A stretch of DNA of 19,104 nucleotides from an uncultured Pseudomonadota bacterium (GTDB taxonomy: Bacteria; SAR324; NAC60-12). The notes under the pieces are model-generated. The model worked only from the letters and a program-made list of their open reading frames with translations, was not told where the DNA came from and did no database searches. The stretch is taken from positions 1-19,104 of the forward strand of contig CAJWCD010000071.1 in assembly GCA_913020725.1 (NCBI GenBank), in the 5' to 3' direction. Shown one piece after another: positions 358-18,898 of the stretch (its first letter is position 1; each line of letters begins with the position of its first letter). Made by a program: the position numbers and the translations under genes.

Positions 358-1060
358 TCAGGGAACGAGCCAGTCGCACAGGGCGCGGGTGACGGCTTCG
401 GGCTGCTCCAGTGTGGAGAGGTGCCCGCAGTGCTCCAGCACCGTGAGTGTGGCGTTGGGGATGCTTGCGGCCATTTCCTCATGAAGTTCCAGCGGCGTCA
501 GGATGTCCTCACGTCCGCACAGCACGAGAGTAGGAACGGAGATGGTGGGCAAGGTGGAAACGCTGTTGCTCCTCGAAAGCACAGCGTTGATTTGGTTGCA
601 AAATCCCGTGGGGCCAACGGAGAGGCCCATATCGAGAATCACCTGACCGAGCGCTTGATCGTGCAGGCGGTCGGGATGGACCAAGCGGGGCAGCAGTACA
701 TCAGTGGTGATTTCCGGGAAACGCCCGGATGCGACCATGCGAAGCTGACGGCGGCGGTCCTCTTGACGTTCCGGGGTGTCGAGCCGGGGATTGGTGTCGA
801 GCAGGGCGAGTTGGGTGATGCACTCCGGGGCTTGCCGCCACAGTTCAAAGGAAAGCAAGCCGCCCATCGAAAGCCCGGCGAGGGCAAAGCGTTCCGGGGC
901 CTCAGCCAGCACCTGCTGTGCCATTTCCGCCATTGTGTCGGCCTGGCTCAGGTCCGGAACCCAGCAATCGGCGATCTCCCACAGGGCTTCAATTTGCGGC
1001 TGCCACATGCGCTTGTTGAGGAGCAGTCCCGGCCAGCAGAACGAGGGGAACCCGGCTCAT
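358..1060 (-). CDS. Alpha/beta-fold hydrolase, apparently with a +1 frameshift at ~1033 (pseudogene or sequencing error)
   Basis: Nucleophile elbow GLSMGG, acid in CGREDILTP, His in CGHLSTLEQP. ATG at 1060 overlaps the upstream stop (ATGA) and reads MSRVPLVLL. Removing one G gives the typical N-terminus ...LLPGLLLNKRMWQPQ in frame with ORF 358..1008. Confidence 0.85.
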
Positions 1061-2067
1061 TCGGCAGCGTCCGGCTCGACCGGAGCGGGGCTAGGTGCAA
1101 GAGTGTGCCAGAGCGTGTGTTCGCCGAATTCCGTCCAGCCTTCGGTGAGGCGGCGGTTGCGGACGTAAAGCAGCGAAAGCCCGGAAACGCGCACCCGCCG
1201 ACCCGTGGGCGCTCCCAGCCAGCCATGCCCGTCGTGTGTTCCCAGCCACGTCCAGCGCAGCATCGCTCGAAAGCCTTCCCGCGAGCCGCCCACCCAAATC
1301 AGATCGTCAATGTGATGCGCAAGGTCCGGGAACATCGCCAGCCAACCCAGTACGTCCTCCTGAAAATCCTGAGCGCCGTAGCGTTCGCCCCGTGAATTCC
1401 CGTGCCCCCGGAAGTAGTGGTCCACGCCCGCGTCGGAGCGTCCGACCATGCGGCGGTTCCAGAGCCGATGCAAGGTGGAGCGCAGGAAGGATCCGATCTC
1501 GAAATTTTCTCGCGCGTTGCCGGGGTCGGGCGGAAGCTGACCTTGCAGGCGTTCGATTTCGCCCTGCACTTCGGGGGCTTCCAGAGCGGAAAATCCCCAA
1601 GGCGGGGCTTGGCGAATGGCCTCATCGCTCCAGCCGAGTTGCCGAAGCAGCCCCACCTCGTCCACCGCTCGCCATTCCTCGGCAATGCACTCGTCCGCCA
1701 CGCGCAGCAGCAGCAGCCACGGCTGCACTATGCGCTGCCCGGTGGGCGTTCCGTAAACGCCGTGTCCCAAGTGCGTGCCCACGAAGGTGCAGCGCAACGC
1801 GACCCGGAAGTTCCCGGACTCGTCTTCGCAGGCGAACACCTCGTCAATGAAAAGCCGAGCGTCCGGAAAGCAGGTGAGCTGTTGGGTGACGCGCTCCAGC
1901 CACGCATCCCGCCCGTAGGTCAGTTGGCCCCCCTGAATGATGTTGGCCCGGTGGGTGTAGTGGTCGTACATGCGACCCAGTTCCCGGAACTCCCAGACGT
2001 TGCGGAGGGTGTCGCAGGCAACACGCAGGGCATCACCGAGGTCGTTGCGGCGTGGATTGGAGTTCAC
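1057..2067 (-). CDS. Two-domain SnoaL/NTF2-like ester cyclase family protein (paralogue 1)
   Basis: Two repeats of FPD...R(C/W)T(F/W)xGTHxGHGxxGxPTGxR...E(E/G)W. Likely start is GTG at 2067, overlapping the upstream TGA (GTGA). Confidence 0.85.
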   Translation of the reverse strand: MNSNPRRNDLGDALRVACDTLRNVWEFRELGRMYDHYTHRANIIQGGQLTYGRDAWLERVTQQLTCFPDARLFIDEVFACEDESGNFRVALRCTFVGTHLGHGVYGTPTGQRIVQPWLLLLRVADECIAEEWRAVDEVGLLRQLGWSDEAIRQAPPWGFSALEAPEVQGEIERLQGQLPPDPGNARENFEIGSFLRSTLHRLWNRRMVGRSDAGVDHYFRGHGNSRGERYGAQDFQEDVLGWLAMFPDLAHHIDDLIWVGGSREGFRAMLRWTWLGTHDGHGWLGAPTGRRVRVSGLSLLYVRNRRLTEGWTEFGEHTLWHTLAPSPAPVEPDAAE

Positions 2068-3206
2068 CACAGGCGCTCCGTGGCAAGGGCGGCTCCGGCG
2101 GACAGCGAACCCAGCTTGGCCCAAGTGATGTCGGCGTCCACACTGCCAAAGCCCGCGAAGGTGGAGAATCCGCAATCACTGCCCGCCAGTACCCGCTCCC
2201 GTCCCACAATGTTGGCATAGCGGCAAATGCGTTCGGCAATCAGTTCGGGGTGTTCCACAAAATTCGTCGTCGAATCCAGCACTCCGGGAATCAGGACCTT
2301 GTCCTCGGGTAACTTAGCGTCCCGAAAGGCGGTCCACTCGTGGGAGTGGCGCGGATTGGACCCCTCAAAGGAAAGCGCCTGCGGCTTGGCTTTGAGAACG
2401 GTCGGTAAAATTTTGGCCATTTCGATGTCGCAGTGGTGCGGCCCCTGATAGTTTCCCCAACAAACGTGCAACCGCACCATTTCGGCAGGAATGTTTTCTA
2501 GCGCATGGTTGAGCGCCTCAATGTGCAGTTCCGCCATTTCAAGAAACTCTGCGTCCGACTTATCCTTGAACATCATGTGCCGACCCAGTGCCAAATCCGG
2601 GCTGTCAACCTGCAAAACCAGCCCTGTGTTGACAATGCCTTCGTATTCAACGCGCATGGCCTCGGCGAGGGCAAACAGGTAGCTGCGGTGGTCCGGATAG
2701 TGGTCGTTGGGCTGGAAGAGCGCGATGACTCCGGGCGAGGCTGCGTTCAGGAATGCTTCGGCGACTCCGGATGCGGCCAGTGCGGCCTGAAAGTTGTCGA
2801 GGTCGATTTGCAACGGCTGGAGGTCTTTCACACCCACGTCACCTGTGCAGCGCGGTCGGGTGTAGGACGGCACCCCTCCGCTTTTCGCAATGCGCTTGGA
2901 AAACTCCGGATATTCCTCCAAGTCCTTGGGGGTGCAGCGTGGGCTGTCGCCCTCGAATCCGGTGAGGCGATCCTTGATGTAGGTCGCATAGCTGATCTTG
3001 CTTTGCTCGCCATCGCTGACAATGTCCACCCCCGCGTCCTTTTGCTTGCGCACGGTTTCCTGCACCGCCTCGGCGATCACGCGGTCATACTCGGCAAGAT
3101 CGTACTCCTTCTGCCCTTCCTTGGCGAAGACGAGTTCAAAGACGCGTTGTGAGCGCGGCAGGCTGCCAACGTGGGTGGTGAGAATGCGGTCGCTGCTCAG
3201 TTTCAT
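2064..3206 (-). CDS. Cobalamin-independent methionine synthase II family protein (stand-alone MetE C-terminal domain; epoxyalkane:coenzyme M transferase-like)
   Basis: TTHVGSLPR, SDGEQ, Zn ligands LHVCWGNY (HxC), E in LSFEGSNPRH and DCGF. 380 aa, with no N-terminal MetE domain. AAGGA RBS. Confidence 0.9.
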   Translation of the reverse strand: MKLSSDRILTTHVGSLPRSQRVFELVFAKEGQKEYDLAEYDRVIAEAVQETVRKQKDAGVDIVSDGEQSKISYATYIKDRLTGFEGDSPRCTPKDLEEYPEFSKRIAKSGGVPSYTRPRCTGDVGVKDLQPLQIDLDNFQAALAASGVAEAFLNAASPGVIALFQPNDHYPDHRSYLFALAEAMRVEYEGIVNTGLVLQVDSPDLALGRHMMFKDKSDAEFLEMAELHIEALNHALENIPAEMVRLHVCWGNYQGPHHCDIEMAKILPTVLKAKPQALSFEGSNPRHSHEWTAFRDAKLPEDKVLIPGVLDSTTNFVEHPELIAERICRYANIVGRERVLAGSDCGFSTFAGFGSVDADITWAKLGSLSAGAALATERLW

Positions 3207-3229
3207 GCGGTTCCTTTGAAGTGTTCTGG

Positions 3230-3257
3230 ATTATACCCTAGGCTATTGCAGTTGCAA
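3230..3257 (-). promoter_or_regulatory. Sigma70-like promoter for the MetE-like / SnoaL / hydrolase operon
   Basis: Minus strand TTGCAA (3257-3252), 16-nt spacer, perfect TATAAT (3235-3230), just upstream of the ATG at 3206. Confidence 0.6.
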
Positions 3258-3330
3258 ATCCGTTCAGGGACTCGGCAAAACTTAGGCTTGTTCTCTTCAG
3301 GACGGAGAGTCCGGATTGTGAAAAAACCTC

Positions 3331-3359
3331 TTGCATACGATTGCATACAGGAGTACAAT
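3331..3359 (+). promoter_or_regulatory. Sigma70-like promoter for the ABC operon with an overlapping LacI-type operator (TGCATACGATTGCA, 3332-3345)
   Basis: TTGCAT (3331-3336), 17-nt spacer, TACAAT (3354-3359). The operator matches the palindrome TGCATACGTATGCA at 12/14 positions. Confidence 0.7.
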
Positions 3360-3551
3360 ACCACACCTTGTGGACGAAGCAAGTGAACTTCACGGTTGAG
3401 TCTGCAGAGCAAGCCGTTTGGTTGATTTACGGCAAACCCAGTGAACGATCCAACCCGGAAGCAGATGGACCGGAAGGCAAGTTTGCGCAATCCATAGCCG
3501 GGCGGAACGCCCCTAGGGGCGAGAAGTCCATTTTCCTCAAAGGAGAGTACG

Positions 3552-4763
3552 ATGAAAATATTCAAACTGGTGCTGATTGCAGTGGCACTCGTAGCGTCTG
3601 GAACTGCTCAGGCGGCCTGCGGATTCAAGAACAGTGTGTCGCTGAAGTCGCTGACGGCGGGCTTTCAGGCGTGGAAATCCGTCACCAGCGCCATGGCCGA
3701 GTGCGGCAACTTTGAACCGGTGCTTGATCAGGAGTTCCGCAAGAAGCAGCCCGTCGCCTTTTCGGCAAATCCGGCGCTTTATCAAATTGGTGGCGTGTCC
3801 AACGGCACCATGGTTCCGCTCTTGAACGAGGGTACGATCCGTCCACTAGACAGCTTGGTCACCAAGCACGGACAGCATCTCAAGCCGAATCAGTTGATCA
3901 AGATTGACGGCAAGATCATGGCCGTGGCCATGATGGTCAATGCCCAGCACTTCATGTACCGCGAGGACATCCTCAACAATCTGGGCATTGCCGTGCCCGG
4001 TACCTACGGCGAAGTGCTGGCGGTGGCTGAGAAGATCAAGCAGGCGGGCGTTGTGGACTACCCGCTGGGCGGCACCTACAAGGCCGGATGGAATTTGGCG
4101 GAGGAATTCATCAACATGTACCTTGGCTTCGGCGGTGCGTTCTTTGGTTCCGGCAATTCCCCGACGGTCAACAACATCGAGGGTATCGTCACGCTGGAAA
4201 CCATGAAGGAACTGACCATGTACATGGACCCGGAGTATCTGGTTTCGGACTCCACCTATGTGCAGAAGCAGTTCCAGCAGGGCAAGATCGCCATGGCGAA
4301 CCTCTGGGCCACCCGTGCTGGTGCGATGGATGACGCCGCCGAATCTCAGGTGGTGGGCAAGGTGCAGTTCTCGTCGGCTCCGGCTCCGACGGCAGGCAAC
4401 CGCCCGGCCTCGACGCTGTGGTGGGACGGCATCGTGATTGCCAAGAACATCTCGGACACTCAGGCCGAAGCCGCCTTCCGCGTCGCGATGGAAGGACTGG
4501 ACAGTGAGATGGTGCAGGCCAACAATGCGGATGCCATTTGGCTGATTGACGGCTATGCGCCCGGAAAAGCCGCCAAAGGCGCGTCCGACACCGCCGCCAA
4601 TGGCGCGGTTCCGTATCCAGCCAGCAAGCAGATGGGCATGATGCACACCGCCCTTGGCAATGGCATCGCCGACTTCCTGATCGGGAAGAAGGACGCCCGC
4701 ACGGCACTCGCCGACATTGAGGCGGCCTACACGACCTCCGCCAAGGAAGCGGGGTTGCTCTAA
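3552..4763 (+). CDS. ABC transporter extracellular solute-binding protein (carbohydrate/CUT1 type)
   Basis: Sec signal peptide ending in AQA-A, family-1 SBP motifs (G-IRPLD, FMYREDIL, FQQGKIAM), AAGGAG RBS, followed by two permeases. Confidence 0.92.
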   Translation: MKIFKLVLIAVALVASGTAQAACGFKNSVSLKSLTAGFQAWKSVTSAMAECGNFEPVLDQEFRKKQPVAFSANPALYQIGGVSNGTMVPLLNEGTIRPLDSLVTKHGQHLKPNQLIKIDGKIMAVAMMVNAQHFMYREDILNNLGIAVPGTYGEVLAVAEKIKQAGVVDYPLGGTYKAGWNLAEEFINMYLGFGGAFFGSGNSPTVNNIEGIVTLETMKELTMYMDPEYLVSDSTYVQKQFQQGKIAMANLWATRAGAMDDAAESQVVGKVQFSSAPAPTAGNRPASTLWWDGIVIAKNISDTQAEAAFRVAMEGLDSEMVQANNADAIWLIDGYAPGKAAKGASDTAANGAVPYPASKQMGMMHTALGNGIADFLIGKKDARTALADIEAAYTTSAKEAGLL

Positions 4764-4774
4764 TCCTCACAATT

Positions 4775-4805: not shown

Positions 4806-4826
4806 CCGCCTTGTGGATCGGCAGTA

Positions 4827-5846
4827 ATGAAATTCAAGACCTTCGCGCTGTTTGTTGGCCCGTCGGTCTTTCTCATGTTCCTGTTCATCGCCGCCCCCCT
4901 GTTCAGCGTTTTCTGGCAGAGCTTCCACCTCACCAAACCCGTGTTTGAAACTGTGGAGGTGGAAACCTGCACTCCGGGTTTCACGGGCCAGACCTGTGTG
5001 GTCGAAAAGAAAACGCGCCCGGTTTTTGACGCCCAAGGCAAGCCCAAGACGGAAACAACCTTCGTCGGCCTGCAAAGCTACCGCAACCTCATTGAACCGG
5101 ATCGTGCCTTTCCGGCCATGGTGGACGGTGATTGGACCAAGCTGCTGACCATCGACTTCTGGAAGGCGCTGCGCTTCACGCTCACTTTCACCTTCATTAC
5201 CCTTCCCCTTGTGATCGCAGTTGGGTTTGCCATTGCGCTCGCGGTCGACAACACCCTCCGCGCCCTGCGCGGCCCGGTGATCTTCCTTTCGCTGCTGCCC
5301 TTCATCATCACTCCGGTGATCGGAGCGCTGGCGATCCGCTGGCTCTTCATCGGCGACGGCATCATGACCGCATTGCTGGAGTGGTGGCTGGAGCGCGACA
5401 TCGCCCTTTTTGCGCAGGGCTGGACGATTGAGCTGCTGATGCTCTTCTACCGCGTCTGGCACGCCGCGCCCTTCGCCTTTGTGGTGCTGTACGCGGGCCT
5501 CCAGACCGTGAACCAAGACGCGCTGGAGTCGGCCATCATTGATGGGGCGAACCGCTGGGAACGCCTGCGCTACATCGTTATCCCCCACCTGATGCCGCTG
5601 CTGATTTTCATTTCGCTGATTCACCTGATGGACACCTACCGGGTGTTCGAGGAGGTGGTGGGCTTCTCCAGCCAAGCGCACGTGATCTCGCTGCAATGGC
5701 TGACCTATGACTTCCTGACTCCGGACGACAGTGGCAGCCGTTCGATTGGCCGTGCTTCGGCCAGCGCGATGCTGACCATGATCGGCATTGCTATCATTCT
5801 GGTTCCACTGTTACGCCGCACCTGGCGTGATCACAAGGAGGGGTGA
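4827..5846 (+). CDS. Carbohydrate ABC transporter permease (MalF-like)
   Basis: Multiple TM helices and EAA loop ALESAIIDGANRWERLRYIVIPHL. Start taken as ATG at 4827 (MKFKTF). Confidence 0.92.
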   Translation: MKFKTFALFVGPSVFLMFLFIAAPLFSVFWQSFHLTKPVFETVEVETCTPGFTGQTCVVEKKTRPVFDAQGKPKTETTFVGLQSYRNLIEPDRAFPAMVDGDWTKLLTIDFWKALRFTLTFTFITLPLVIAVGFAIALAVDNTLRALRGPVIFLSLLPFIITPVIGALAIRWLFIGDGIMTALLEWWLERDIALFAQGWTIELLMLFYRVWHAAPFAFVVLYAGLQTVNQDALESAIIDGANRWERLRYIVIPHLMPLLIFISLIHLMDTYRVFEEVVGFSSQAHVISLQWLTYDFLTPDDSGSRSIGRASASAMLTMIGIAIILVPLLRRTWRDHKEG

Positions 5847-5848
5847 CG

Positions 5849-7009
5849 ATGGAAAACCTACCTCGCGCCCTGCGCCAGCCTTTTTTCCTGAAAGTAACCA
5901 CCGGTATTTTCTTGGGTTTCTGGTGCTTGCTGGCCGTGTTTCCGATTTTCTGGATCGCGGTGATGAGTTTTAAGGTACCGGTCGAGGCATTTTCTTCAAA
6001 TCCGTTAGCGGTGATTTTTGGTCCGCAAACCCGCGCCACCGGTAAAGGACTCTCGTTGTTGGACCTCATAGCTGGAATTGCGATGCTGGTGCTGGCAGTG
6101 CGGATGGCGATGCACTGGTTGCCGAATGCCGTCCGCCGTCATGCTCCTGCGAGCCAAGCGTGGCTGGGCTGGATTTTCGGGGTCGTACTCTTTGGAGCCG
6201 GAGTGGCGGTGGTTTTTCTTGAATGGCTGCCCGGATTACTCGGTGTGCTGAATCCTGCACTCGGTCCGCTCGGTGTCCCACTCATCGGCCTGACTCCGGA
6301 GCATTACATTGCCGTGTGGGTGGAGAACGAATTCTACCGCAATTTCATCAACTCGCTGATCGTGACCACCGGAGTGGTGACGATCTCGCTTTCCGTGGGG
6401 ACTCTGGCAGGCTATGGCCTGGCGCGCTCCCACACGAGCTTGGCGTTCTGGATTCTCATCATCGCGCTCATTTTCCGGGCCTTGCCGCATTCGGTGCTGG
6501 TGGCAGGCTATTTGCCGGTATTCATACATTCGGCGGAAATCCTCCGTCCATTCTTGGGCGATGCCGCACCCACACTCTATGGCCAACCGTGGGCGGTGAT
6601 CGCGGTACTGGTTTCCATCAACCAGCCCTTCACGATCTGGATGCTGCGCAGTTTCTTCCAGAACATCCCCTCCGAACTCGATGAAGCGGCCCGAGTGGAC
6701 GGTTGTAACCACTTTCAGGCGTTTCGGCTGGTGATCATACCCGTGATGTGGCCCGGTGTGATCACAACGGGGCTGTTCAGCTTCCTGCTCGCCTACAACG
6801 ACTTTCTGGTAACTTCGCTGTTGCTAGACGCGCAGAACCAAACGATGGTTCCGGCGATCAGCGGTTATTTCAACCGCGAGACCACCACCACCGATCAGGT
6901 GGAAGCCGTGGCCGCCGCGGTCTCCATTACCGCACCCCTGTTCGTGCTGGTGCTGTTCTTCCAGAAGCAGATCATCTCCGGGCTCGTACAGGGCGCGGTG
7001 AAAGGATAA
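5849..7009 (+). CDS. Carbohydrate ABC transporter permease (MalG-like)
   Basis: EAA loop FFQNIPSELDEAARVDGC and C-terminal ISGLVQGAVKG. AAGGAGG RBS precedes ATG 5849 (GTG at 5843 is an alternative start). Confidence 0.92.
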   Translation: MENLPRALRQPFFLKVTTGIFLGFWCLLAVFPIFWIAVMSFKVPVEAFSSNPLAVIFGPQTRATGKGLSLLDLIAGIAMLVLAVRMAMHWLPNAVRRHAPASQAWLGWIFGVVLFGAGVAVVFLEWLPGLLGVLNPALGPLGVPLIGLTPEHYIAVWVENEFYRNFINSLIVTTGVVTISLSVGTLAGYGLARSHTSLAFWILIIALIFRALPHSVLVAGYLPVFIHSAEILRPFLGDAAPTLYGQPWAVIAVLVSINQPFTIWMLRSFFQNIPSELDEAARVDGCNHFQAFRLVIIPVMWPGVITTGLFSFLLAYNDFLVTSLLLDAQNQTMVPAISGYFNRETTTTDQVEAVAAAVSITAPLFVLVLFFQKQIISGLVQGAVKG

Positions 7010-7076
7010 GATCGCCATGACCCAGCAAACAAGGGCTCGTGACGGTTCCCACGCTCAACCTCTGAGGCGGGAACAT

Positions 7077-8159
7077 ATGCCTACAGGCTTCTCCTTCTCC
7101 CTTGGGAACTACTTGGGGGGGGACTCTCGCACCGCTCAGCGCATCCCGGACGATTTTGGCCCTCGTCAACCGATGCGAGGGTTTGAGGAGACCTACCACA
7201 ACATCATCGACTACATTGTCCGCATCACGCACCGCATCTGGGAGGAGTGCAACGTCGAGTACATTCTCGACACCTACTCGGATCAATCCCATGTTTATGA
7301 CGACTATGGGCTTCAGCTAGGCAACCAGAAAATCGTCAGTGACACGCACCACACCACGGGTGCGTTTTCCAACATTGAACTGATCGCGGATGAGGTCATC
7401 TGGGCCGGCAACGATGCAATCGGATTCCATACCTCGCACCGAACCCTGATCCGGGGGACCAATGACGGGGAGAGCAATTACGGTCCAGCCACCAACCGCA
7501 ACATTGACATCTTGGTGATTGCCAACTGTGTTGCTCTGGAGAACGAAATCTTTCTGGAGCATGTCCTGTACAACACCTCCAGCATGCTTCAGCAACTGGG
7601 GCTTGACTTGAACGAGGTGGCCCAACGACTAGCGGCATCTCCACCTTCGGGATGGACAAGGAACGCTCAAACCTGGGAGAGGTTGCGCCAAGCGACTCGG
7701 CCTGAAACGCCGATTTGCATCAGTGAGCCGATTGACGGATTTGATGTAGACCATTTCATCCGCAAGCACTTTGATGAGGTCTGGAATCGAAAAAATCTGG
7801 AAGTTCTCACCGCCAGCAGCACCCCCGATTTTCAGTTTCAGGGACCAACCAACCGAGCTTTCTCTAGTGTTCAGCCCCACCAAAATTTTCTCCAGTCGAT
7901 CTTCATAGCCTTTCCTGACCTTGACTTGCAGGTGGACGAAGTTTACTGGATGGGCAACGAATTGGAAGGCTTTCTAGTCTCTACTCGTTGGAGCGCCATA
8001 GGCACTCATCAGGGGGGTGGCCTCTATGGACCACCGACTGCCCGACAAGTGCAGTTGTGGGGCATCACCCAAAATCAAATCCTTGATAGCCGCATTTCCA
8101 GCGAATGGATGCTGTTCAACGAGTTGGACTTGATGATACAGGTTCAAGCCAGACGCTAG
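7077..8159 (+). CDS. Two-domain SnoaL/NTF2-like ester cyclase family protein (paralogue 2)
   Basis: RQPMRGF...DYIVRITHRIWEE, FPDL...RWSAIGTHQGGGLYGPPT...SEWMLFNELDL. Start is either 7017 or 7077. Confidence 0.85.
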   Translation: MPTGFSFSLGNYLGGDSRTAQRIPDDFGPRQPMRGFEETYHNIIDYIVRITHRIWEECNVEYILDTYSDQSHVYDDYGLQLGNQKIVSDTHHTTGAFSNIELIADEVIWAGNDAIGFHTSHRTLIRGTNDGESNYGPATNRNIDILVIANCVALENEIFLEHVLYNTSSMLQQLGLDLNEVAQRLAASPPSGWTRNAQTWERLRQATRPETPICISEPIDGFDVDHFIRKHFDEVWNRKNLEVLTASSTPDFQFQGPTNRAFSSVQPHQNFLQSIFIAFPDLDLQVDEVYWMGNELEGFLVSTRWSAIGTHQGGGLYGPPTARQVQLWGITQNQILDSRISSEWMLFNELDLMIQVQARR

Positions 8160-8191: not shown

Positions 8192-8737
8192 ATGAAAGGC
8201 TCCCGTCCGCCACAAGCGGAACTGACGAAGGACAACGACCGCTCCAAAACCGAGGAGACCCGCCACGTCGTCGAGTCGATGGTGGACGGCCTCAACGACC
8301 ACGAAATTGACGGTATAGGGGCGTTCTTCGCCGAGAGCTTCCGCTGGATGGGCAACGCCGGATGCGGCTTCAAGAACGGCCTCAAGGAGTTTCAGGACAA
8401 CTGGCAGCGTCCCTTTCAGGCGGCGTTTTCCGACAAGGTGTGTATCGACGAGGCCCGCCTCGCCGAGGGCGAGTGGATGGCGGCTTTTGGCAGGCAGAGG
8501 GCCACGCACTCCGGAACCTTCATGGGCATCGCCCCCACTGGGAAGCGGGTGGAAATCCGCTACATGGACTTCTGGAAGGTACAGGACGGCAAGATCGTGG
8601 ACAACTGGGTGATGGTCGATTTTCCGCATGTGCTACGCCAACTCGGAGTCGATCCTTTCGACGGCCATGGCTGGGAGGCTTATGAACAAGGCGAGCAAAT
8701 CCTGCCTTGCCCACTGCACGAAGCGGAGGCCAAATGA
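8192..8737 (+). CDS. Single-domain SnoaL-like ester cyclase family protein (paralogue 3)
   Basis: ATHSGTFMGIAPTGKRVEIRYMDFWKVQDGKIVDNW is a canonical SnoaL motif. Start at ATG 8192 avoids overlap with the upstream gene. Confidence 0.9.
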   Translation: MKGSRPPQAELTKDNDRSKTEETRHVVESMVDGLNDHEIDGIGAFFAESFRWMGNAGCGFKNGLKEFQDNWQRPFQAAFSDKVCIDEARLAEGEWMAAFGRQRATHSGTFMGIAPTGKRVEIRYMDFWKVQDGKIVDNWVMVDFPHVLRQLGVDPFDGHGWEAYEQGEQILPCPLHEAEAK

Positions 8738-10812: not shown

Positions 10813-11106
10813 CTATGCGGAAGACTTGGTGAGCGGAGCGCGGACGTAGGTTTCCAGCACAGCATTCATGCGGGTTTGGTAGCCCTTGCCTCCGTCCTTA
10901 AAGGCATCAACCACGAATTTCTTGACATGCAAGGTCACGGGCTGGGTTTTTTCAGGAAGGACGAGCATGGCGTTTTTCCAAAAGGCTTCGTCCAACTCTG
11001 GAACCTCGCTGAAGTCAATGTCCTGATCCTTGAGTTCGGCAAGCCTAGGGGCGCTCAGGGGTTGATCGTATGATTTCGGCAAACCGTTGCTTGTCTTCTT
11101 CATCAA
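10813..11106 (-). CDS. BrnA-family antitoxin (ribbon-helix-helix)
   Basis: DIDFSEVPELDEAFW...PVTL...VVDAFKDGGKGYQTRMNAVL matches the BrnA signature (GYQTRxN). Confidence 0.85.
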   Translation of the reverse strand: MMKKTSNGLPKSYDQPLSAPRLAELKDQDIDFSEVPELDEAFWKNAMLVLPEKTQPVTLHVKKFVVDAFKDGGKGYQTRMNAVLETYVRAPLTKSSA

Positions 11107-11140
11107 TCTTGGTGCGAGCCGTCGGTTTACTGGGGGTCTT

Positions 11141-11389
11141 TCAGGAGGGAGGCGAACTGGAGAGGGCGGACACTTCCGATTTGCTTGCGACCAGTGTTTC
11201 CATGAGCATCCGTTGGGTGTCTGGTCGAGTCACGCGCTTGGAAACACTGAGCATTTCAACGCCAACGATGTTGGTGTTGGCATCATAATCCAACACAACC
11301 CCGGGAGCGACGGTTTCGGAATCCACGATCTGAGCCTCTCCGAGTCTCAAATAAACGGCATCTGCGTCTGCATCGTAAGTGAGCTTCAT
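11141..11389 (-). CDS. DUF2283 domain protein (putative antitoxin)
   Basis: MKLTYDADADAVYLRL...GVVLDYDANTNIVGVEML is the DUF2283 pattern (YD..ADA.Y.....D.D..G...G.E). Confidence 0.85.
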   Translation of the reverse strand: MKLTYDADADAVYLRLGEAQIVDSETVAPGVVLDYDANTNIVGVEMLSVSKRVTRPDTQRMLMETLVASKSEVSALSSSPPS

Positions 11390-11649
11390 AGTCGGCCCTT
11401 CATGTTGCGATCAAAATGCACGGTGATGACCCGTAACGGGTTTGTCTTTGGGGCACAAACCACACGCAACACACGATGATCACATTCCAGAATTACCACC
11501 AGCCGATGCTCCAAACCTGAATCGGTTGCGTCAGGTTCCACCAACTTGGGTGTCGTGAGTGCGGCTTCTAACTATTCTGAAAGGATGCTGCGTTCCTGCA
11601 TCCGCATTTCAGTATGTTGGGTCAGTTCGTACTCTACCACATTTTTCAT
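11386..11649 (-). pseudogene. DUF4258-family putative toxin, interrupted by an in-frame TAG at 11572-11574
   Basis: Manual translation: MKNVVEYELTQHTEMRMQERSILSE*LEAALTTPKLVEPDATDSGLEHRLVVILECDHRVLRVVCAPKTNPLRVITVHFDRNMKGRL. Motifs (T.H...RM.ER.I, RVLRVV, VITV.FDR) fit DUF4258. Its stop overlaps the DUF2283 start (ATGA). Not in the ORF track. Confidence 0.8.
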
Positions 11650-11718: not shown

Positions 11719-12819
11719 TCACTCCAGCGCCACCAACTGCTTCATGAGGGCGATTTCACTGTAGAGGGTGTAGTCCTCGACAAGCGTTTCGTTGCGGACG
11801 TAGAGGTGACTGAGGCCCATCAGGGAGATGCGCCGTCCGGTGGGACTGCCAAACACGCCCCAGCCTTCGTGGGTGCCTTGCAGCGTCCAGCGCACTGCGA
11901 GCTTGAAGCCGCCCTTGGCTCGGTCCGGATTCCAGTAGAGGTCGTCCACGAGCAGTTGTGCGTCTGGAAACTGCGCAAGCAGGCCCGTGACGTGCGCAGT
12001 GTAGTCTCCAGTGCCGTACAGTTCGCGTTGCCCCGGAAGGTGCAGCAGTATGTTAGGAGCACAGCATTCGCGGACGCGGTTGAGAAGCCGCACATTCCAA
12101 GCATCGTGCAGGAAGCCTCGCACGAAATCCTCAACATCGAAATCCCCTGACTTGGGCATATGCACTTGAGGTGCGTTCTGCCCGCTGAGACGGTCCAAAT
12201 CTCCGGAGGGGGAATCCTGCTTGCTCCATTCGGCCTCTTGACGCGCCATGGTGCGGGCCAACTCCCACGGATCCAGTCCAAGCTGCCGCACCACGGCGGT
12301 TTCGTCGCGGATGAGCCATTCCTCGGCAATGCGGTTTTCATGAGCGATACAGTTGCAGAGCGTACTCCAGTGGATGCGGCGTCCGGTGGGCGGTCCCAGT
12401 GGCCCATGCCCCCAGTGGTGGGCGAGGTTGGTGATGCGGGCGGAGAAATGGTAGGTCTGCTCCTCTTCATCAACGCGCCACATCACATCGTCCCCAAACG
12501 CCCGACGATCCGGGAAGGTGTGCTGCATCTGTAGGGTGTCGGAGATCACCTGGTCGCGTCCGTAGGAAACGCCGTGCGGGTGCCAAACCGGGGCGTTGTG
12601 GCGGTACTGGTTGTAGATGCGCCCCACGCCGCGCTCCTCCCAAATCCAGTGGGTTCCCCGGATGTGGTAGTCCACGATGTCCACGATGCGCTCGTCAAAG
12701 CCGCGCATCGTCTGCCGCTTTTCCGAACCCGGATTCATCAGCGTAGCGATGTCCTTCCAGCCGATTTCCGTGACAGGGGGAGCTTGAGCGGGTTTGGGTG
12801 GAGTTGAATCGTTTGCCAT
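11719..12819 (-). CDS. Two-domain SnoaL/NTF2-like ester cyclase family protein (paralogue 6)
   Basis: RQTMRGF...THWIWEER, FPD...GPPTGRRI...AEEW, and RWTLQGTHEGWGVFGSPTGRRI. Start ATG 12819 lies 4 nt after the cupin stop. Confidence 0.87.
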   Translation of the reverse strand: MANDSTPPKPAQAPPVTEIGWKDIATLMNPGSEKRQTMRGFDERIVDIVDYHIRGTHWIWEERGVGRIYNQYRHNAPVWHPHGVSYGRDQVISDTLQMQHTFPDRRAFGDDVMWRVDEEEQTYHFSARITNLAHHWGHGPLGPPTGRRIHWSTLCNCIAHENRIAEEWLIRDETAVVRQLGLDPWELARTMARQEAEWSKQDSPSGDLDRLSGQNAPQVHMPKSGDFDVEDFVRGFLHDAWNVRLLNRVRECCAPNILLHLPGQRELYGTGDYTAHVTGLLAQFPDAQLLVDDLYWNPDRAKGGFKLAVRWTLQGTHEGWGVFGSPTGRRISLMGLSHLYVRNETLVEDYTLYSEIALMKQLVALE

Positions 12820-12823: not shown

Positions 12824-13840
12824 TCACTCAGAAAGCCATTGGGGATCAGCCAGAGCATCCCCGGAGATCACAGAAAACAGATAGCCCTTTTCAGAACCGA
12901 CACACTCCAAGCGTCGGGACACCTTGCCGGGCAGGGAGAAGATATCCCCCGTTTTCAGCGTGAAACGGCCCGACTGTCCCTCGGTGCTCCAGTCCACCTG
13001 CCACTGGCCGCGATGGCAGATCAGCACCTCCTTTTCCGGGCGGGTGTGGGCTTGGTAACCACCACTGGGTTTGGCTTCGTGGAGCAGCAGCACAAAGCCG
13101 TCGCCTCCGGGAATGGCCGCGTTTTGCGAGGCAATCATTGCATAAAGCTGGATTGGACCGAAGTCTCCCGCTTGCAAGGGGTGTCCGGACGCTGGATGAC
13201 GTTGCCCAGCGTAGCAGATTTGCCGTGCCATTTCCGCTTGGGAGTAGTTGTCGTAGCCGGCTTCTTCTTCATGGGTCAGCGTCTTCACCCGTTTGGCACC
13301 TTCAGGAAGCGGCTTCTGTTTCGTGTCCCACACACCATGTTCTTCGAGCAGCACTAGCCCGTGGGCCTCGGCGGCCTCGAACACCTGGGGGGCCCACTCC
13401 ACCCCCCCGGTGTCGTCCCCGCCCAGCACAGTGAAGAGAAACCCGTAGTCCTCTCCAACGTTCTCAAATCCCCGGAAGCAGTGCGTGGGGATGGAAACGA
13501 CATCGCCTTCGTGGAGCGTGACGCGATTTTCGCCCTGAAGCCCCCAGTAAATCTCGAAGGAGCCTTCGTGGATCATAAAGACTTCGGCGGTGAAGTGGTT
13601 GTGCAGTGAATTCTTGATCCTCGGCGGCTGCCCGGCTGCCCCGATATTGAAACCATGGGGCTCGCGGATGTTGACAACCTGCTCGGTGTTTTCGGTTACA
13701 CCGGGGCCGATGATGCTGAAATTATCCTTGAGGTGGCTTCCGGGAGTGTGCGTGTCAATGAACGCGCTTTTGCACGGCACCATCTCGTTGCGGCGCACCA
13801 GCCGCTGGCGCATGGATTCCGGAGTGTGGATCGCAGGCAT
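12824..13840 (-). CDS. Cupin-domain protein (probable bicupin)
   Basis: Metal motif SLHNHFTAEVFMIHEG with GDVVSIP...FRGFEN, and a second degenerate repeat HTRPEKEVLICHRG...GDIFSLP. Start ATG 13840 (MPAIHTP). Confidence 0.8.
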   Translation of the reverse strand: MPAIHTPESMRQRLVRRNEMVPCKSAFIDTHTPGSHLKDNFSIIGPGVTENTEQVVNIREPHGFNIGAAGQPPRIKNSLHNHFTAEVFMIHEGSFEIYWGLQGENRVTLHEGDVVSIPTHCFRGFENVGEDYGFLFTVLGGDDTGGVEWAPQVFEAAEAHGLVLLEEHGVWDTKQKPLPEGAKRVKTLTHEEEAGYDNYSQAEMARQICYAGQRHPASGHPLQAGDFGPIQLYAMIASQNAAIPGGDGFVLLLHEAKPSGGYQAHTRPEKEVLICHRGQWQVDWSTEGQSGRFTLKTGDIFSLPGKVSRRLECVGSEKGYLFSVISGDALADPQWLSE

Positions 13841-13887: not shown

Positions 13888-14749
13888 TCAGACACGAAGC
13901 CGCTGCTTGGTGGCTGAGTCGAACAGGTAGCACTTTTCTGACACGAGCCGCACGCCAACCGCTTCATCAATGCCGATGCGGAATTCCTTGGGACCACGCA
14001 CGGTCAGCAAATCGTCGCCAAGTTGCACCGTGACCAAGGTGGATTCGCCCGTCAACTCAAACGAATAAACCGATCCGGAGCAGGTGCCATTCTCCGACTG
14101 GGTGAGTTCCAAATCCTCCGGGCACACTCCCAAGGTGGCCTGCTGGCAGTCGCCCAGCCCTGTTAAGATGGAAAGACGCGGGTGCTGGAACTGGCCCTGC
14201 TGAAGCGTTCCCGGAATCAGGTTCATGGCCGGAGAGCCAATGAAGCCCGCGACAAACAGGTTGGTGGGATCGTTATAGATGTTCTCCGGCGTGTCGAGTT
14301 GGGAAATGATGCCGTGATCCATGACGGCCACGCGGTCGGCCAGCGTCATCGCTTCGATCTGGTCATGCGTGACGTAAACCGTGGTGATGCGCAGTTCGTG
14401 CTGGAGGTGCTTGAGTTCTGCTCGCATGCTCACGCGCAACTTGGCGTCAAGGTTGGAAAGCGGTTCGTCCATCAAAAACACGGTGGGAGTGCGGACGATG
14501 GCACGGGCAAGGGCCACGCGCTGGCGCTGGCCTCCAGAAAGCTCACGGCGGCGGCGGTCCAAGAGTTGTTCCAGCCGCACTTTTTCTGCCGCGCGGCGTA
14601 CCTGCTCGGCGTGTTCGCTTTTGGGCACCCTGCGGACTTTCAGGGGGGTAGCGGATGTTTTCATAGACGGACATGTGCGGATAGAGGCCGTAGTTCTGGA
14701 AGACCATGGCCACGTCCCGGTCCTTGGGCAGTTCGTCGTTGACCCACAT
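13888..14749 (-). pseudogene. MalK/UgpC-like ABC ATPase, 5'-truncated (no Walker A) and frameshifted
   Basis: Q-loop [13 protein letters not shown] is in one frame. LSGGQRQR, Walker B FLMDEPLSNLD, H-loop YVTHDQ and the TOBE-like C-terminus are in another frame. The shift is in a G6 run at 14643-14648. No GxxGxGKT is encoded upstream. Confidence 0.85.
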
Positions 14750-14757
14750 GCTCTGTA

Positions 14758-14806
14758 TGAATACGTATGCAACGTATTTATACTGCAACTAAGCAGGAAA
14801 GGTCAA
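14758..14806 (-). promoter_or_regulatory. Sigma70-like promoter plus LacI-type operator (TGCATACGTATTCA, 14771-14758) for the ATPase-cupin-SnoaL operon
   Basis: Minus strand TTGACC (14806-14801), 18-nt spacer, TATAAA (14782-14777). The operator is 5 nt downstream and matches the palindrome at 13/14. Confidence 0.72.
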
Positions 14807-14819
14807 GGTTTTTTTCGAG

Positions 14820-15527
14820 TCAGTGGATTTCTGCGGAGTCCCCGATCGCCTGCTTGAGAACCTCAATAGTGAAATCCGGGCGTTTGCAGGCATCGAGGAT
14901 GACGGCCTCGCGGCGGATGCAGAGGTCAATGTACTCCGGAAGCTTGGGGGTGGCCTCCAGTGGGATCACTACCGCTCCGTGACGGTCGGCGTGGATCAGG
15001 TCGCCGTGCTTGACGGCCATCCCGAAGATTTCCACGTCAATGCCAATGTCCTCGACACGCACATAGACATGGCTGGGCGAGATCTTGCCGCCGAGCAGTT
15101 GGAAACCGGGGGCCAGCACATCGAGGTCGCGGATTGCCCCGTTGGTGATGCCTCCGGGTAGGCCCAGCGCTTTGTGGATGTTGGAGTTGACCTCGCCCCA
15201 GTGGGCACCGATTCCCGGACGCGAATCCAGATCTTGAATGACCACGATGTTGGGGCCGGGATCGCTGGCGACGTACTCGTAGTAGCGCAGGGCATTTTCT
15301 CGCTTGCGTACCGGGTCAACTTTGTTGGCCGCCCGGATCGTTGCGGTGCGGGCGTAGCCCACGATAGGTGGCAACGCGGGGTCGGCGCAAACAAACGGCT
15401 CGGTGGTGAAGCCAACTGTGCGGCGCTCCGGAACTGCATGCTCCAGTGCGTTGCAGATCGTGGGGGTGTCAAACTGGCGGAGGTGTTCCAAGAGCGAGGG
15501 GTCCAAAGACGCGGCTGAAGAAGTCAT
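14820..15527 (-). CDS. RraA-family / HMG-aldolase-like protein
   Basis: DTPTICNALE, IVGYARTA, AHWGEVNS, TNGAIRDL, GDLIHADRHGAVVIP. Start taken as ATG 15527. Confidence 0.87.
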   Translation of the reverse strand: MTSSAASLDPSLLEHLRQFDTPTICNALEHAVPERRTVGFTTEPFVCADPALPPIVGYARTATIRAANKVDPVRKRENALRYYEYVASDPGPNIVVIQDLDSRPGIGAHWGEVNSNIHKALGLPGGITNGAIRDLDVLAPGFQLLGGKISPSHVYVRVEDIGIDVEIFGMAVKHGDLIHADRHGAVVIPLEATPKLPEYIDLCIRREAVILDACKRPDFTIEVLKQAIGDSAEIH

Positions 15528-15572
15528 GGTTTGGTCATGCGATGAGGGAGAAAACGTTGCCCGAGCCAAAAC

Positions 15573-15625
15573 TTGACGTTTGGGGCAGTCTGCCAGTATC
15601 CTATTAGCAACAGCATACCTATGCA
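15573..15625 (+). promoter_or_regulatory. Sigma70-like promoter plus LacI-type operator (AGCATACCTATGCA, 15612-15625) for the hisD-like gene
   Basis: TTGACG (15573-15578), 18-nt spacer, TATCCT (15597-15602). The operator matches the palindrome at 12/14. Confidence 0.65.
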
Positions 15626-15661
15626 AAACTCATAACCCAGATTTTTTTACAGTAGATCACC

Positions 15662-16939
15662 ATGATTCGGTACCTCAAAGACGGCATCAGCGCCGAGCAG
15701 GTCAAGGCGGAGGACGCGCAGGTGCGGCAGACAGTGGAGCAGATTCTTGCGGACATTGAAGCGCGGGGCGATTCCGCTGTGCAGGAACTGGCCAAGAAGT
15801 TTGACAACTGGGACCAACCCACCTTCCGGCTCAGCGAGGAAGAGGTCGCGGCGGCGGTTGCAGGGCTTCCGGAACAGACCATTGCGGACATCAAGTTCGC
15901 GCAGGAGCAGATCCGCAACTTTGCACAAGTGCAGCACGACTCCATGCAGGAGGTCGAAGTGGAAACGCTTCCGGGGGTCGTGCTGGGGCACAAGCACATT
16001 CCGGTCAACAGTGTGGGCTGCTACGTTCCCGCTGGCAAGTATCCGATGGTTGCCTCGGCCCACATGAGCGTAGTCACGGCGAAGGTCGCCGGAGTGCAGC
16101 GCATCATCGCCTGTGCCCCCCCGTATCAGGGACGACCCCACCCGGCGATTGTCACGGCCATGCACCTTGGGGGCGCAACCGAAATTTACTGCCTGGGCGG
16201 CATTCAGGCGGTGGGCGCGATGGCGCTGGGCACTGAAACCATCCAGTCGGTGGACATGCTGGTTGGCCCCGGAAACGCCTATGTCGCCGAGGCCAAGCGC
16301 CAGCTTTTTGGGCGAGTGGGCATTGACCTGTTCGCCGGACCCACCGAAACCCTTGTAATTGCCGACGACAGTTGTGATGCCGAACTCTGCGCGGTGGACT
16401 TGCTGGGTCAGGCAGAACACGGGCTGAACTCTCCGGCGGTACTGCTCACCAATTCCGAAACGTTGGCCCGCGACACCATGAGCGAGGTGGACCGGCAGCT
16501 CACAATTCTGCCAACTGCCGAAACTGCGGGGCAGGCGTGGCGAGACTACGGGCAGGTGATCGTTTGCGACACCGAGGAGGAGATGATCGTCAAGGCGGAT
16601 GAGATTGCCTCCGAGCATGTGCAGGTCATGACCCGCAGTCCCCAAAATTTTTTGGAAGGCATGACCAACTACGGAGCACTCTTCTTGGGGCAAGAGACCA
16701 ACGTTTCGTATGGTGATAAGGTGATTGGCACCAACCACACCCTGCCGACCAAAAAAGCGGCCCGCTACACTGGAGGTTTGTGGGTGGGCAAATTCCTCAA
16801 AACCTGCACCTACCAGCGTGTGCTGACCAAGGAGGCGAGTGTGCTGATTGGTGAATACTGCTCACGACTGTGCGCGTTGGAGAACTTTGCGGGGCACAAG
16901 GAGCAGGCGGACATCCGGGTGCGGCGCTACACGCAATGA
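15662..16939 (+). CDS. Histidinol dehydrogenase homologue (HpsN-related, probably a catabolic NAD-dependent alcohol-to-acid dehydrogenase)
   Basis: [62 protein letters not shown]. No his genes nearby, and GDK replaces the GDY of HisD. Confidence 0.9.
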
Positions 16940-16975
16940 TTTTGTCGAGGTCTAATGGCAAACGACGGAGTTGAA

Positions 16976-17053
16976 GTAGGGCAGATGAAGCGTAGCACAT
17001 CCGCGAGTTTCGGTAGCAGTATTGGCGGTTCCGCTCCGATTGAACCACCCTAC
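16976..17053. repeat. Inverted pair of GTAG-family REP-like palindromes (REPIN/BIME-like)
   Basis: Left unit GTAG-GGCAGATG-AAGCGTAGCA-CATCCGCG. Right unit, read on the minus strand, GTAG-GGTGGTTC-AATCGGAGCG-GAACCGCC. Each is a GTAG tetranucleotide followed by an imperfect hairpin. Confidence 0.6.
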
Positions 17054-17096
17054 GCGGTTGCGTAGCGCGAGATCACTTCCAACTCAAACACAAACG

Positions 17097-18155
17097 ATGG
17101 CGGAGCAGCGGAAGAAGGCCACCTCGATGCAGGTAGCGCGGCTGGCGGGGGTGTCTCAGTCGGCGGTGTCCCGCGCCTTCACGCCGGGAGCCAGTGTTTC
17201 GGAGAAGATGCGCCGCCGTGTGCTGGAGGCCGCCCGCAAGCTCAGCTACCAGCCCAACGCCATCGCCCGCAGCCTGATCACGCGCCGCTCCAACATGATA
17301 GGTATCGTGATCGCTAACATCACCACCAACCCTTTCTATCCGGATGTGCTGGACGCCCTCAGCCGCCGCTTTCAGGAGCGCGGTCAGCGCGTCATGCTCT
17401 TCGTCGTTACCCGTGATCAAAGCCTGGACGACATCCTGCCGCAACTCTTTGAGTATCAGGTGGATGGTATCCTCATCACTGCAGCGACCCTCAGTTCCGA
17501 AATGGCACAGGAGTGCGAACGGCTGGGTACGCCTGTGACGCTTTTCAACCGCTACGTCCTTGGCACCAGCGCAAGCTGGGTTTGTTGCGACAACGAGGAA
17601 GGCGGACGGATGGTCGCACGGCTATTTCTGGATGCCGGACATGAGCGCCCCGCCTTTCTGACAGGATCGGAAGACACCTCAACTAGTGTGGACCGCGAAC
17701 GCGGCTTTACGGACTACTTGCAGGAACACGGGGTGATGCCGCTCCGAGAGGTAGGGCACTATACCTATCGCTGGGCGTATGAGGCCACCCTGCGGCTGCT
17801 GGATTGCCCGGAGCGTCCCGACGCCATTTTCTGCGCGAACGACATCATGGCGATTGGCGCACTGGAGGCCATCCGGAGCGGACGGGGCTTGCGGGTTCCG
17901 GAGGACGTTTCTGTGATCGGCTTTGACGACATCTCGATGGCTGCGTGGCCGAGCTACAACCTCACGACCATCCGACAGCCCGTGGTGCCGATGATGGACG
18001 AGTCGGTGGAGGTTTTGCTCCGGCGTGTGGAGGATCCGGAAGCCCCCTTCGTCAATCGGCTGATTCCCGGCGATTTGGTAGTGCGTGGTTCAGCGCGACT
18101 CCCCAAGGGCGTGTCCTCTGGTTGGGTGATCACCAAGGAACAGGACCACGAATGA
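17097..18155 (+). CDS. LacI-family transcriptional regulator
   Basis: [24 protein letters not shown], hinge [44 protein letters not shown]. Confidence 0.95.
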
Positions 18156-18898
18156 CGACGATGCAGGAAAAAACGGTTCTCGTGACCGGAGGCGCAGGCG
18201 GAATCGGTACGGCGATCTGCCAGAGGGTAGCCGAATCCGGGGCTTCGGTGATTCTTACCTACCACAACAGCAAGCAGAGCGCAGAGACTTTGCTGGCGTC
18301 TCTTCCGGGAACAGGCCACCTTGCCCTCCAGACGCGAGTGGACGAAACTCCGGCGGTGCAGGAACTTGCCGAACGGGTACAGTCGCAGCACGGCAAGCTG
18401 GACGTGCTGGTCAACTGCGCAGGTACCACTCGCTTTGTACCGCACCACGACCTTGACGCACTTGACGACAACCTCATTGACGAAATCTTCCGCATCAACT
18501 GGCGGGGTGCGTTTGCCTGCGTCCGGGCCTTCCGAAGTTTGCTGGAACGCGGTAGCGATCCGTTGGTGATCAACATCTCCTCCATCGCAGCCGTCTCCGG
18601 GATGGGCAGCAACATCGCCTACTGCGCGTCCAAGGCGGCACTCGATTCGATGACCCGCTCGCTGGCCCGTGCGCTGGCTCCGACGATTCGGGTGGTTTCG
18701 CTCTCTCCGGGAGTGGTGGATACCGAGTTCATCCGGGGGCTTGACCCTTCATGGCGCGAGGATCAACTCCGCCACACCCCGCTTCAGCGTTTCCCCAGTC
18801 CGGAGGAAATCGGGGAGGCCGTCGTTGCACTGGTCACCACGCTGACCAGCATGACAGGCTGCATCCTTCCTCTCGATGGTGGGCGGCCTCTTGGCTGA
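18152..18898 (+). CDS. Classical short-chain dehydrogenase/reductase (SDR)
   Basis: TGGAGGIG, LVNCAG, catalytic Ser (NISS) and YCASK, terminal DGG. ATG overlaps the lacI stop (ATGA). Confidence 0.93.
   Translation: MTTMQEKTVLVTGGAGGIGTAICQRVAESGASVILTYHNSKQSAETLLASLPGTGHLALQTRVDETPAVQELAERVQSQHGKLDVLVNCAGTTRFVPHHDLDALDDNLIDEIFRINWRGAFACVRAFRSLLERGSDPLVINISSIAAVSGMGSNIAYCASKAALDSMTRSLARALAPTIRVVSLSPGVVDTEFIRGLDPSWREDQLRHTPLQRFPSPEEIGEAVVALVTTLTSMTGCILPLDGGRPLG

Follow-up and report, generated by a model that had tools for sequence, protein, structure and literature searches.

A conserved LacI-controlled catabolic regulon of SAR324 and other bacteria, with mycosporine-like amino acids as its probable substrates

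The 19,104-nucleotide stretch analyzed here (the window) is the whole of contig CAJWCD010000071.1 (C71) of GCA_913020725.1, a 3.4 Mb, 93% complete genome of the SAR324 lineage. It carries one LacI regulon for uptake and breakdown, with genes for an ATP-binding cassette (ABC) importer, six SnoaL proteins of the NTF2 fold (S1 to S6), a HisD-like dehydrogenase, a short-chain dehydrogenase (SDR), a cupin, an RraA-type aldolase-like protein, a hydrolase and a MetE-like zinc enzyme (Table 1). The cluster is a real, conserved and undescribed catabolic regulon, and comparison of the genomes that share it indicates that its substrates are probably mycosporine-like amino acids (MAAs), i.e. shinorine, porphyra-334, mycosporine-glycine and their kin. 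MAAs, known as algal sunscreen molecules, are produced by cyanobacteria, algae and corals and move through food chains. The original prediction, made from the letters of the window, had listed the same gene content, which Pfam assigns, and had reported no polyketide synthase (PKS), nonribosomal peptide synthetase or exporter, in agreement with our scan of 20 open reading frames (ORFs). Its central proposal, an uptake-and-degradation regulon in which a cyclic polar compound is oxidized to an acid and then cleaved by an aldolase, is supported by the conserved companions described below; it had also known of no pathway with this gene set, and the open-access literature (supplements excluded) held no description of the set, of its operator or of MAA-degradation genes.

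A search with S5 alone yielded 164 loci; companions were counted within ±10 kb in the best 80, many of which end early at contig ends. The HisD-like gene accompanies S5 in 56 of them, LacI in 50, an S1/S6-type gene in 46, the cupin in 44, the MetE-like gene in 40 and the hydrolase in 30, so that the set does co-occur across genomes, as predicted; gene order is reshuffled while content is retained. Because the 80 loci are kin, Fisher p-values for co-occurrence were set aside. The importer slot is occupied by an ABC system in 20 loci and by a sodium-solute symporter (SSS) in 22, and a lactonase-like slot by an amidohydrolase-type protein in 28 and an SMP30-type protein in 7, neither of which is encoded in the window. 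The distribution of S5 is wide but patchy, and the cluster recurs in many, mostly marine taxa: S5 is present in 21 of 44 genomes of its own family, in 26 of 75 Vibrio genomes and, seeds included, in 17/301, 12/301, 11/201, 10/401, 1/201 and 1/401 genomes of six further samples, the seed being the single carrier among 401 genomes of one phylum (that of G088) and 201 of one family (that of G493). S5 is also carried by cultured organisms, among them Paracoccus alcaliphilus, Phaeobacter piscinae, Vibrio pelagius, Halomonas borealis, Zobellella maritima and an archaeon, Halobellus limi, whose plasmid locus (L087) holds five consecutive SnoaL genes, a MetE-like gene, an ABC importer and a GcvT-like gene, with IclR replacing LacI. 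Further S5 orthologues (P0175-P0178, P0194, P0198) are named from Citrobacter, Atlantibacter and several pathogenic vibrios. The window DNA itself occurs in marine metagenomes, with at least half of its words in 13 of the 23 runs listed, one of which may be its source, and the cupin has at least 7999 relatives at 90% clustering. S5 genes standing alone amid unrelated neighbours (L004, L006, L036, L058, L066, L132, L149, L182) are uninformative on the substrate. At L004, L006, L016, L019 and L160, a SAR324-type S5 lies beside a sulfotransferase, PhyH, 2-oxoglutarate dioxygenases and an amino-acid ABC importer, and the core genes are missing.

The shared operator motif noticed earlier was confirmed. 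The palindrome TGCATAC-N-TATGCA (≤2 mismatches) occurs at 3332, 14758 and 15612; dinucleotide shuffles of the window gave one site at most in 50 of 50 cases, and the related loci contain 87 sites versus 19.5 expected, spread over 50 of the 80. From the earlier layout of four transcription units around two divergent promoters, the divergent regions stand, while the unit count has to be revised to five promoter-led units, the site at 14758 marking a third, internal promoter. Other operator-like sites in the genome (C13, C77, C139, C37) fall inside or near unrelated genes. In five Vibrio-type cassettes the operator matrix scores below 9 bits, indicating either a divergent LacI site or none.

By sequence, the six SnoaL proteins fall into S1/S2/S6 (25–36% alike) and S3/S4/S5 (27–31%), two groups distant from each other. 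The SnoaL polyketide cyclase model NF033407 was matched by S3 alone, at 40 bits versus a cut-off of 200, and no PKS was found among the conserved companions of the cluster. The neighbours of S5 connect it to amino acids instead. The serine deaminase gene sdaA lies near S5 in 11 of 126 S5-centred loci (11 duplicate or own loci having been dropped) and, in addition, in the extended region of L097. Together these cases represent four lineages whose copies are 44–50% alike: Halieaceae, Hyphomonas (L068), Desulfocapsaceae (L097) and Vibrionaceae/Psychromonas. Halieaceae sdaA has an operator-like site of 17–21 bits about 100 bp upstream, and in Hyphomonas the gene stands within the cluster with an operator of 26 bits, a second copy being present elsewhere in the genome; in both, a PF03458 'glycine transporter' gene follows sdaA. 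Under a rough Poisson null that assumes two copies per 4 Mb, windows of 20 kb and 40–80 lineages, p is 0.0008–0.009 for four lineages, the assumptions being chosen post hoc. A minimal cassette of SSS, a major facilitator superfamily (MFS) transporter and S5, usually together with LacI and a porin, is present in 22 of the 29 Enterobacterales loci. In 16 of these cassettes sdaA directly follows the symporter gene, three (Moritella) adjoin kbl-tdh beyond a LysR gene, and one faces a threonine-aldolase-like gene that scores below cut-off; family models bear out the sdaA and kbl-tdh assignments. Each of five Vibrio genomes has 1–3 further sdaA copies beyond the cassette, and kbl-tdh also flank S5 in two Halomonas loci. 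Vibrio S5 is 55–59% identical to that of the window. A second Vibrio module (HisD-like, SDR, cupin, hydrolase, HpcH, S4 and an S1/S6 type) lies apart from the S5 cassette in L173, L175 and L183 and adjacent to it in G1899.

In shinorine and porphyra-334 a methoxylated cyclohexenimine ring bears glycine together with serine or threonine, Vibrio harveyi has been suggested to hydrolyze the hydroxyamino-acid substituents to yield mycosporine-glycine, and bacteria form 4-deoxygadusol, as stated in passages of PMC3083659. An S5 orthologue (P0197) is annotated in V. harveyi, a match with that activity at species level. The minimal Vibrio cassette (importer, S5, MFS, serine deaminase) would account for the reported bacterial activity cited there, by which both compounds become mycosporine-glycine and 4-deoxygadusol; those passages describe a phenotype to which they assign no genes, and the cluster supplies candidates. 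Ten loci (L031, L034, L051, L055, L072, L077, L116, L118, L119, L143) contain a sulfatase within the cluster, often together with a TonB-dependent receptor, which fits sulfated substrates, given that MAA sulfate esters exist (PMC3083659).

A second chemical constraint comes from the MetE-like enzyme. Its residues H247, C249, E281 and C345, together with S15, E67 and D201, are invariant in 36 of 36 rows and match the zinc (H-C-E-C) and homocysteine (S, E, D) residues listed for MetE in PMC7857596. The protein thus resembles the core methionine synthases MesA-D and the MetE catalytic domain of that source in being a single domain with the same ligands; unlike them, it falls below all family cut-offs (best NCBIfam score 98 bits versus 406), belongs to a catabolic regulon and has no MesX or CoFeSP partner among its conserved neighbours. 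Deltaproteobacterial loci and one acidobacterium encode an MtaA/CmuA-family (URO-D) methyltransferase, a corrinoid protein and a pterin-binding methyltransferase, to which the acidobacterial locus adds an activase and an MTHFR-family gene. Two genomes (G088, G089) with this full corrinoid demethylase set lack both the MetE-like and the cupin genes genome-wide, one lacks the MetE-like gene only, and one has both sets. This alternation suggests that the substrate carries a removable methyl group; it points to methyl removal and does not support the epoxide leaning of the original prediction. A strict exclusivity of MetE-like and cupin genes versus corrinoid and isomerase genes, observed in the ±10 kb loci, was rejected as partly an artefact of that span. 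On one Woeseiaceae contig (L044, 192-3632), a corrinoid activase and a glyoxalase-family gene lie directly upstream of S5.

An N-methylated osmolyte or heterocycle of the betaine or creatine type, yielding sarcosine, glycine and serine, is a rival substrate towards which several neighbours point: the plasmid cluster of Vibrio pelagius has sarcosine oxidase genes at its flanks, GcvT-like genes occur near four loci and a creatininase-family gene in 8 of 80. We consider such a substrate quite improbable. The first methyltransferase is of the MtaA/CmuA family and not MttB, the family that handles N-methyl groups; the creatininase-family protein scores 153 bits with the inositol-pathway hydrolase IolN versus 85 bits with creatininase; and sarcosine oxidase is found in one of the 126 loci.

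The HisD-like dehydrogenase had led to a leaning towards sulfonate, specifically 2,3-dihydroxypropane-1-sulfonate (DHPS), catabolism, and its closest solved relative is indeed HpsN (396 bits). The enzyme passes the TIGR00069 cut-off, which is why automatic annotation calls it HisD, and does not match the HisD motif G-S-A-P-L; a more distant paralogue on contig C2 (38%) is likely the household HisD. The zinc and catalytic residues Q248, H251, E318, H319, D352, K353, H359 and H411 are complete in 63 of 64 rows, the remaining row being truncated. In HpsN, however, the diagnostic motif is G-R-Y-A/S-H with His126 (PMC11382572), where the window protein reads G-K-Y-P-M, and the His is lacking in 62 of the 62 readable rows among the 64. 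In a 23-row tree the HisD-like protein groups with cluster homologues, apart from the HpsN-type protein of its own genome, with the caveat that the joining branch (88/93) carries no star and that two rows from actinobacterial clusters lie outside the group. That HpsN-type gene (G-R-Y-A-H) lies on contig C32 (14144-18360) with a zinc dehydrogenase and HpsP- and SuyAB-like ORFs, a neighbourhood that makes it the probable true DHPS locus. The window therefore shares with HpsN-dependent DHPS catabolism (hpsRNOUP-suyAB; PDB 8V35; PMC11382572) a zinc dehydrogenase of the HisD superfamily, its zinc and catalytic residues all retained, together with a neighbouring SDR and LacI-type regulator, and differs in the His126 motif and in its NTF2, cupin, MetE-like and aldolase genes; neither HpsP nor a sulfolyase was found in the window or among the conserved companions. 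A DHPS-like sulfonate or an epoxide pathway is accordingly highly improbable, even though Lys353 is kept, one MetE-like homologue is database-labelled epoxyalkane-coenzyme M transferase and S5 finds its nearest two-domain folds among epoxide hydrolases (TM 0.34). Annotated loci showed no alkene monooxygenase or coenzyme M neighbours; a genome-wide search for these was not made. HpsN binds DHPS to zinc through a HOCH2-C(OH)-CH2-X-O spacing (PMC11382572), and the ring-opened intermediate of the proposed MAA pathway would offer a spacing of the same type.

The last step is delimited by the aldolase. The window RraA retains W-G-E at 110-112 and R-D in 23 of 23 rows, and has an acidic residue 21 positions upstream of the Arg, the spacing rule for 4-hydroxy-4-methyl-2-oxoglutarate/4-carboxy-4-hydroxy-2-oxoadipate (HMG/CHA) aldolases. 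RraA occupies the aldolase slot in 17 of the 80 loci and HpcH in 31, never together. Both are class II pyruvate aldolases, and Arg123/Asp124 are the catalytic Arg and metal-binding Asp of the HMG/CHA enzyme (PMC5065237), so that their alternation points to a 4-hydroxy-2-oxoacid as end substrate. The lower pathway of 4,5-cleavage for gallate and protocatechuate (PMC5065237) is similar in its RraA-fold aldolase with the Arg-Asp pair and in the end proposed here, CHA to pyruvate plus oxaloacetate; it differs in that the window has no extradiol dioxygenase, 2-pyrone-4,6-dicarboxylate hydrolase orthologue or hydratase, that the proposed ring is non-aromatic, and that the window aldolase is a remote relative within its family, with HpcH in its place in many genomes. 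The demethylate-then-cleave logic, as in the syringate route, is also shared.

For ring opening, the window offers the cupin, in which H80, H82 and E86 are invariant. It has no sequence relative in the PDB; its predicted fold aligns with 2h0v (Z 22.9, rmsd 2.6, 236 aligned), tied with oxalate decarboxylase and seed proteins. The folds of S5 and the cupin are confidently predicted (pLDDT 94 and 93), and structure searches reach the superfamily only and name no function, the ESM Atlas returning unnamed clusters. In the loci with the corrinoid set, a fucose-isomerase-like gene, an Ldh_2 dehydrogenase and the creatininase-family protein are present. Among three models the last fits best that of IolN, 3-dehydro-scyllo-inosose hydrolase (NF041098; E 9e-45, 153 bits), a result obtained after a hydrolytic ring-opening step had been proposed; this suggests that a hydroxylated cyclohexane-dione is opened. 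The likeness to Thermotoga-type inositol catabolism is limited to this hydrolytic opening in related clusters, since the IolN-like gene is not in the window and no inositol dehydrogenase accompanies it. IolN, as part of inositol catabolism, the sugar-type importer with LacI, and the isomerase, lactonase, SDR and HpcH, which are sugar-acid enzymes, could instead serve a non-MAA substrate, namely a different cyclitol or branched sugar derivative with O- or S-methylation that is perhaps conjugated to an amino acid. We regard this substrate class as unlikely, because the conserved companions include neither an inositol-dehydrogenase nor a sugar-acid-dehydratase family, the HisD-type enzyme requires a CH2OH group, and the link to serine deaminase would be left unexplained.

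For MAAs, a complete route can be written, every enzymatic step of which we infer from sequence. After import, the NTF2/SnoaL proteins would hydrolyze the C=N and enaminone links to give 4-deoxygadusol, S5 taking off serine or threonine and the S4 and S1/S2/S6 types glycine and other amines. The MetE-like enzyme would transfer the methyl of the O-methyl group to homocysteine and so produce a cyclic reductone; in the deltaproteobacterial version this step would fall to the corrinoid demethylase. The bicupin with O2 would then open the ring to 4-hydroxy-4-hydroxymethyl-2-oxoadipate by an acireductone-type cleavage of the kind performed by cupins; without O2, the IolN-like hydrolase, isomerase, SDR, lactonase and 2-hydroxyacid dehydrogenase would lead to the same compound. 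The HisD-like enzyme would oxidize CH2OH to COOH, yielding 4-carboxy-4-hydroxy-2-oxoadipate, which RraA or HpcH would split into pyruvate and oxaloacetate. This scheme is provisional as to the order of ring opening and oxidation, the parts that the SDR and the hydrolase would play with O2, and the way in which the SnoaL proteins would share the work. By structure and formula, shinorine minus serine and glycine equals 4-deoxygadusol. The atom balance closes on both routes: the demethylated reductone plus O2, with CH2OH converted to COOH, is C7H8O8, the formula of 4-carboxy-4-hydroxy-2-oxoadipate and the sum of pyruvate and oxaloacetate. Hydrolysis would lead to the same intermediate and employ every gene of the deltaproteobacterial set.

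Several observations weigh against assigning the regulon to MAAs. The atom balance shows fit, not use. We know of no NTF2 protein that hydrolyzes such a C=N bond, nor, to our knowledge, has a MetE-like O-demethylase been described. The sdaA link is scarce among the S5-centred loci; in G494 the linked sdaA is the genome's only copy, the window genome has no sdaA, tdh or kbl match at E<1e-25, the Vibrio cassettes represent one inherited event, two of the 22 minimal cassettes have no such neighbour, and the Moritella kbl-tdh may be a household operon. The swaps are not strict, G090 having the corrinoid set with both MetE-like and cupin genes and G091 the cupin with the hydrolytic set, and several core modules (Vibrio, Halomonas, Paracoccus) have no demethylase nearby. 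The cupin carries Arg123 where the third His is usual, its folds do not separate dioxygenase from isomerase, and the IolN score lies below the cut-off of 245.

The logic of the pathway is familiar, and the substrate and upper enzymes would be new. On balance, though with somewhat less confidence than the substrate itself, we expect this to be the first genetic pathway for complete bacterial MAA catabolism, with aerobic and anaerobic branches, NTF2 proteins acting as imine and enaminone hydrolases, a MetE-like enzyme turning an O-methyl group directly into methionine and a two-step 'strip and export' version in Vibrio. If so, the cluster would provide markers by which a flux of carbon, nitrogen and methyl groups could be followed in SAR324, Halieaceae, Woeseiaceae, roseobacters and vibrios. 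Thousands of database labels reading 'histidinol dehydrogenase', 'ester cyclase' or 'methionine synthase' would have to be corrected, and the NTF2 and MetE folds would gain further types of reaction.

The window copy has suffered damage. Between window positions 14745 and 14758, about 3.4 kb of additional DNA is present in the sister genome G063, where it encodes two permeases, another solute-binding protein and the beginning of the ATPase; correspondingly, the window ATPase lacks its first ~68 codons and is frameshifted at 14645/14646. Since a gap-free 7632-base contig of run X3 shows the same arrangement, the deletion and the frameshift do exist in the population. The hydrolase ORF has an extra base at 1033 that is missing from contigs of X3 and X6 and may be an error or an allele. 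The window importer would need an ATPase borrowed from another locus, and one 53% identical is encoded on C2 of the same genome. That the window copy, as distinct from the cluster elsewhere, is a decaying mosaic without a working pathway is rather improbable: to the ATPase remnant, the deletion, the extra base and inserted toxin-antitoxin-type genes one can oppose that the remaining pathway genes are open, that an independent seawater run has the same arrangement, that the C2 ATPase is available and, weakly, that RNA-run contigs, in which genes cannot be ranked, cover several genes. The second importer of G063 (L094, 3181-6365), lost from the window, has similar binding proteins in L007, L015, L025 and L029.

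Table 1. Features of the window, with strand and basis of assignment
Feature	Position	Strand	Basis and remarks
Alpha/beta hydrolase (GxSxG, Asp, His)	358..1032	-	Pfam (Abhydrolase), motifs, alignment; N-terminal codons cut off by extra base at 1033
S1, two-domain SnoaL, S1/S2/S6 subfamily	1057..2067	-	Pfam; 36% to S6
MetE catalytic-domain-like zinc enzyme (Meth_synt_2), proposed O-demethylase (methyl to homocysteine)	2064..3206	-	Pfam, residues
LacI operator, divergent metE / solute-binding protein promoter	3330..3347	.	20 bits
ABC solute-binding protein, sugar (CUT1) type	3552..4763	+	Pfam; 1600-base contig of RNA run X14 covers gene
ABC permease	4827..5846	+	Pfam, NCBIfam
ABC permease	5843..7009	+	Pfam, NCBIfam
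S2, SnoaL, S1/S2/S6 subfamily	7017..8159	+	Pfam, comparison
S3, single-domain SnoaL	8192..8737	+	Pfam, comparison
S4, two-domain SnoaL, accompanies core module	8734..9780	+	Pfam, neighbours
S5, two-domain NTF2, proposed imino-MAA hydrolase freeing serine/threonine	9785..10792	+	Predicted fold, neighbours
Insert outside pathway: BrnA-type antitoxin, DUF2283, upstream ORF remnant with in-frame stop	10813..11613	-	Pfam
S6, two-domain SnoaL	11719..12819	-	Pfam
Bicupin (Cupin_2), H80-H82-E86 + R123, proposed ring-cleaving dioxygenase (or isomerase)	12824..13840	-	Residues, fold
ABC ATPase remnant, 5'-truncated and frameshifted, left edge of ~3.4 kb deletion	13888..14764	-	Sister-genome comparison
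LacI operator, internal promoter	14756..14773	.	24.9 bits, best site in genome
RraA / HMG-CHA-aldolase-family protein, W-G-E and R-D	14820..15527	-	Pfam (RraA-like), motif
LacI operator, divergent rraA / hisD-like promoter	15610..15627	.	14.2 bits
HisD/HpsN-superfamily four-electron alcohol dehydrogenase, third type (G-K-Y-P-M)	15662..16939	+	Pfam (Histidinol_dh), motif, tree
LacI-family repressor	17097..18155	+	Pfam
Short-chain dehydrogenase (adh_short)	18152..18898	+	Pfam; ~50% identical to SDRs of Vibrio and deltaproteobacterial clusters

The insert between S5 and S6 is absent from the sister genome alignment, and its upstream ORF with the in-frame stop is presumably DUF4258-like. The best NCBIfam matches of the hydrolase are PcaD-type lactonases, far below cut-off. 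An Rfam scan of the window gave 0 matches, and terminator and promoter scans stayed at about chance level. Short repeats at 1-55 and 18942-18983 each have about 14–17 copies in the genome, often at contig ends, and are probably mobile-element ends that break the assembly. A second RraA-type aldolase, 84% identical, is encoded on another contig of the window genome (G000:C144, 6683-7387), close to the contig end.

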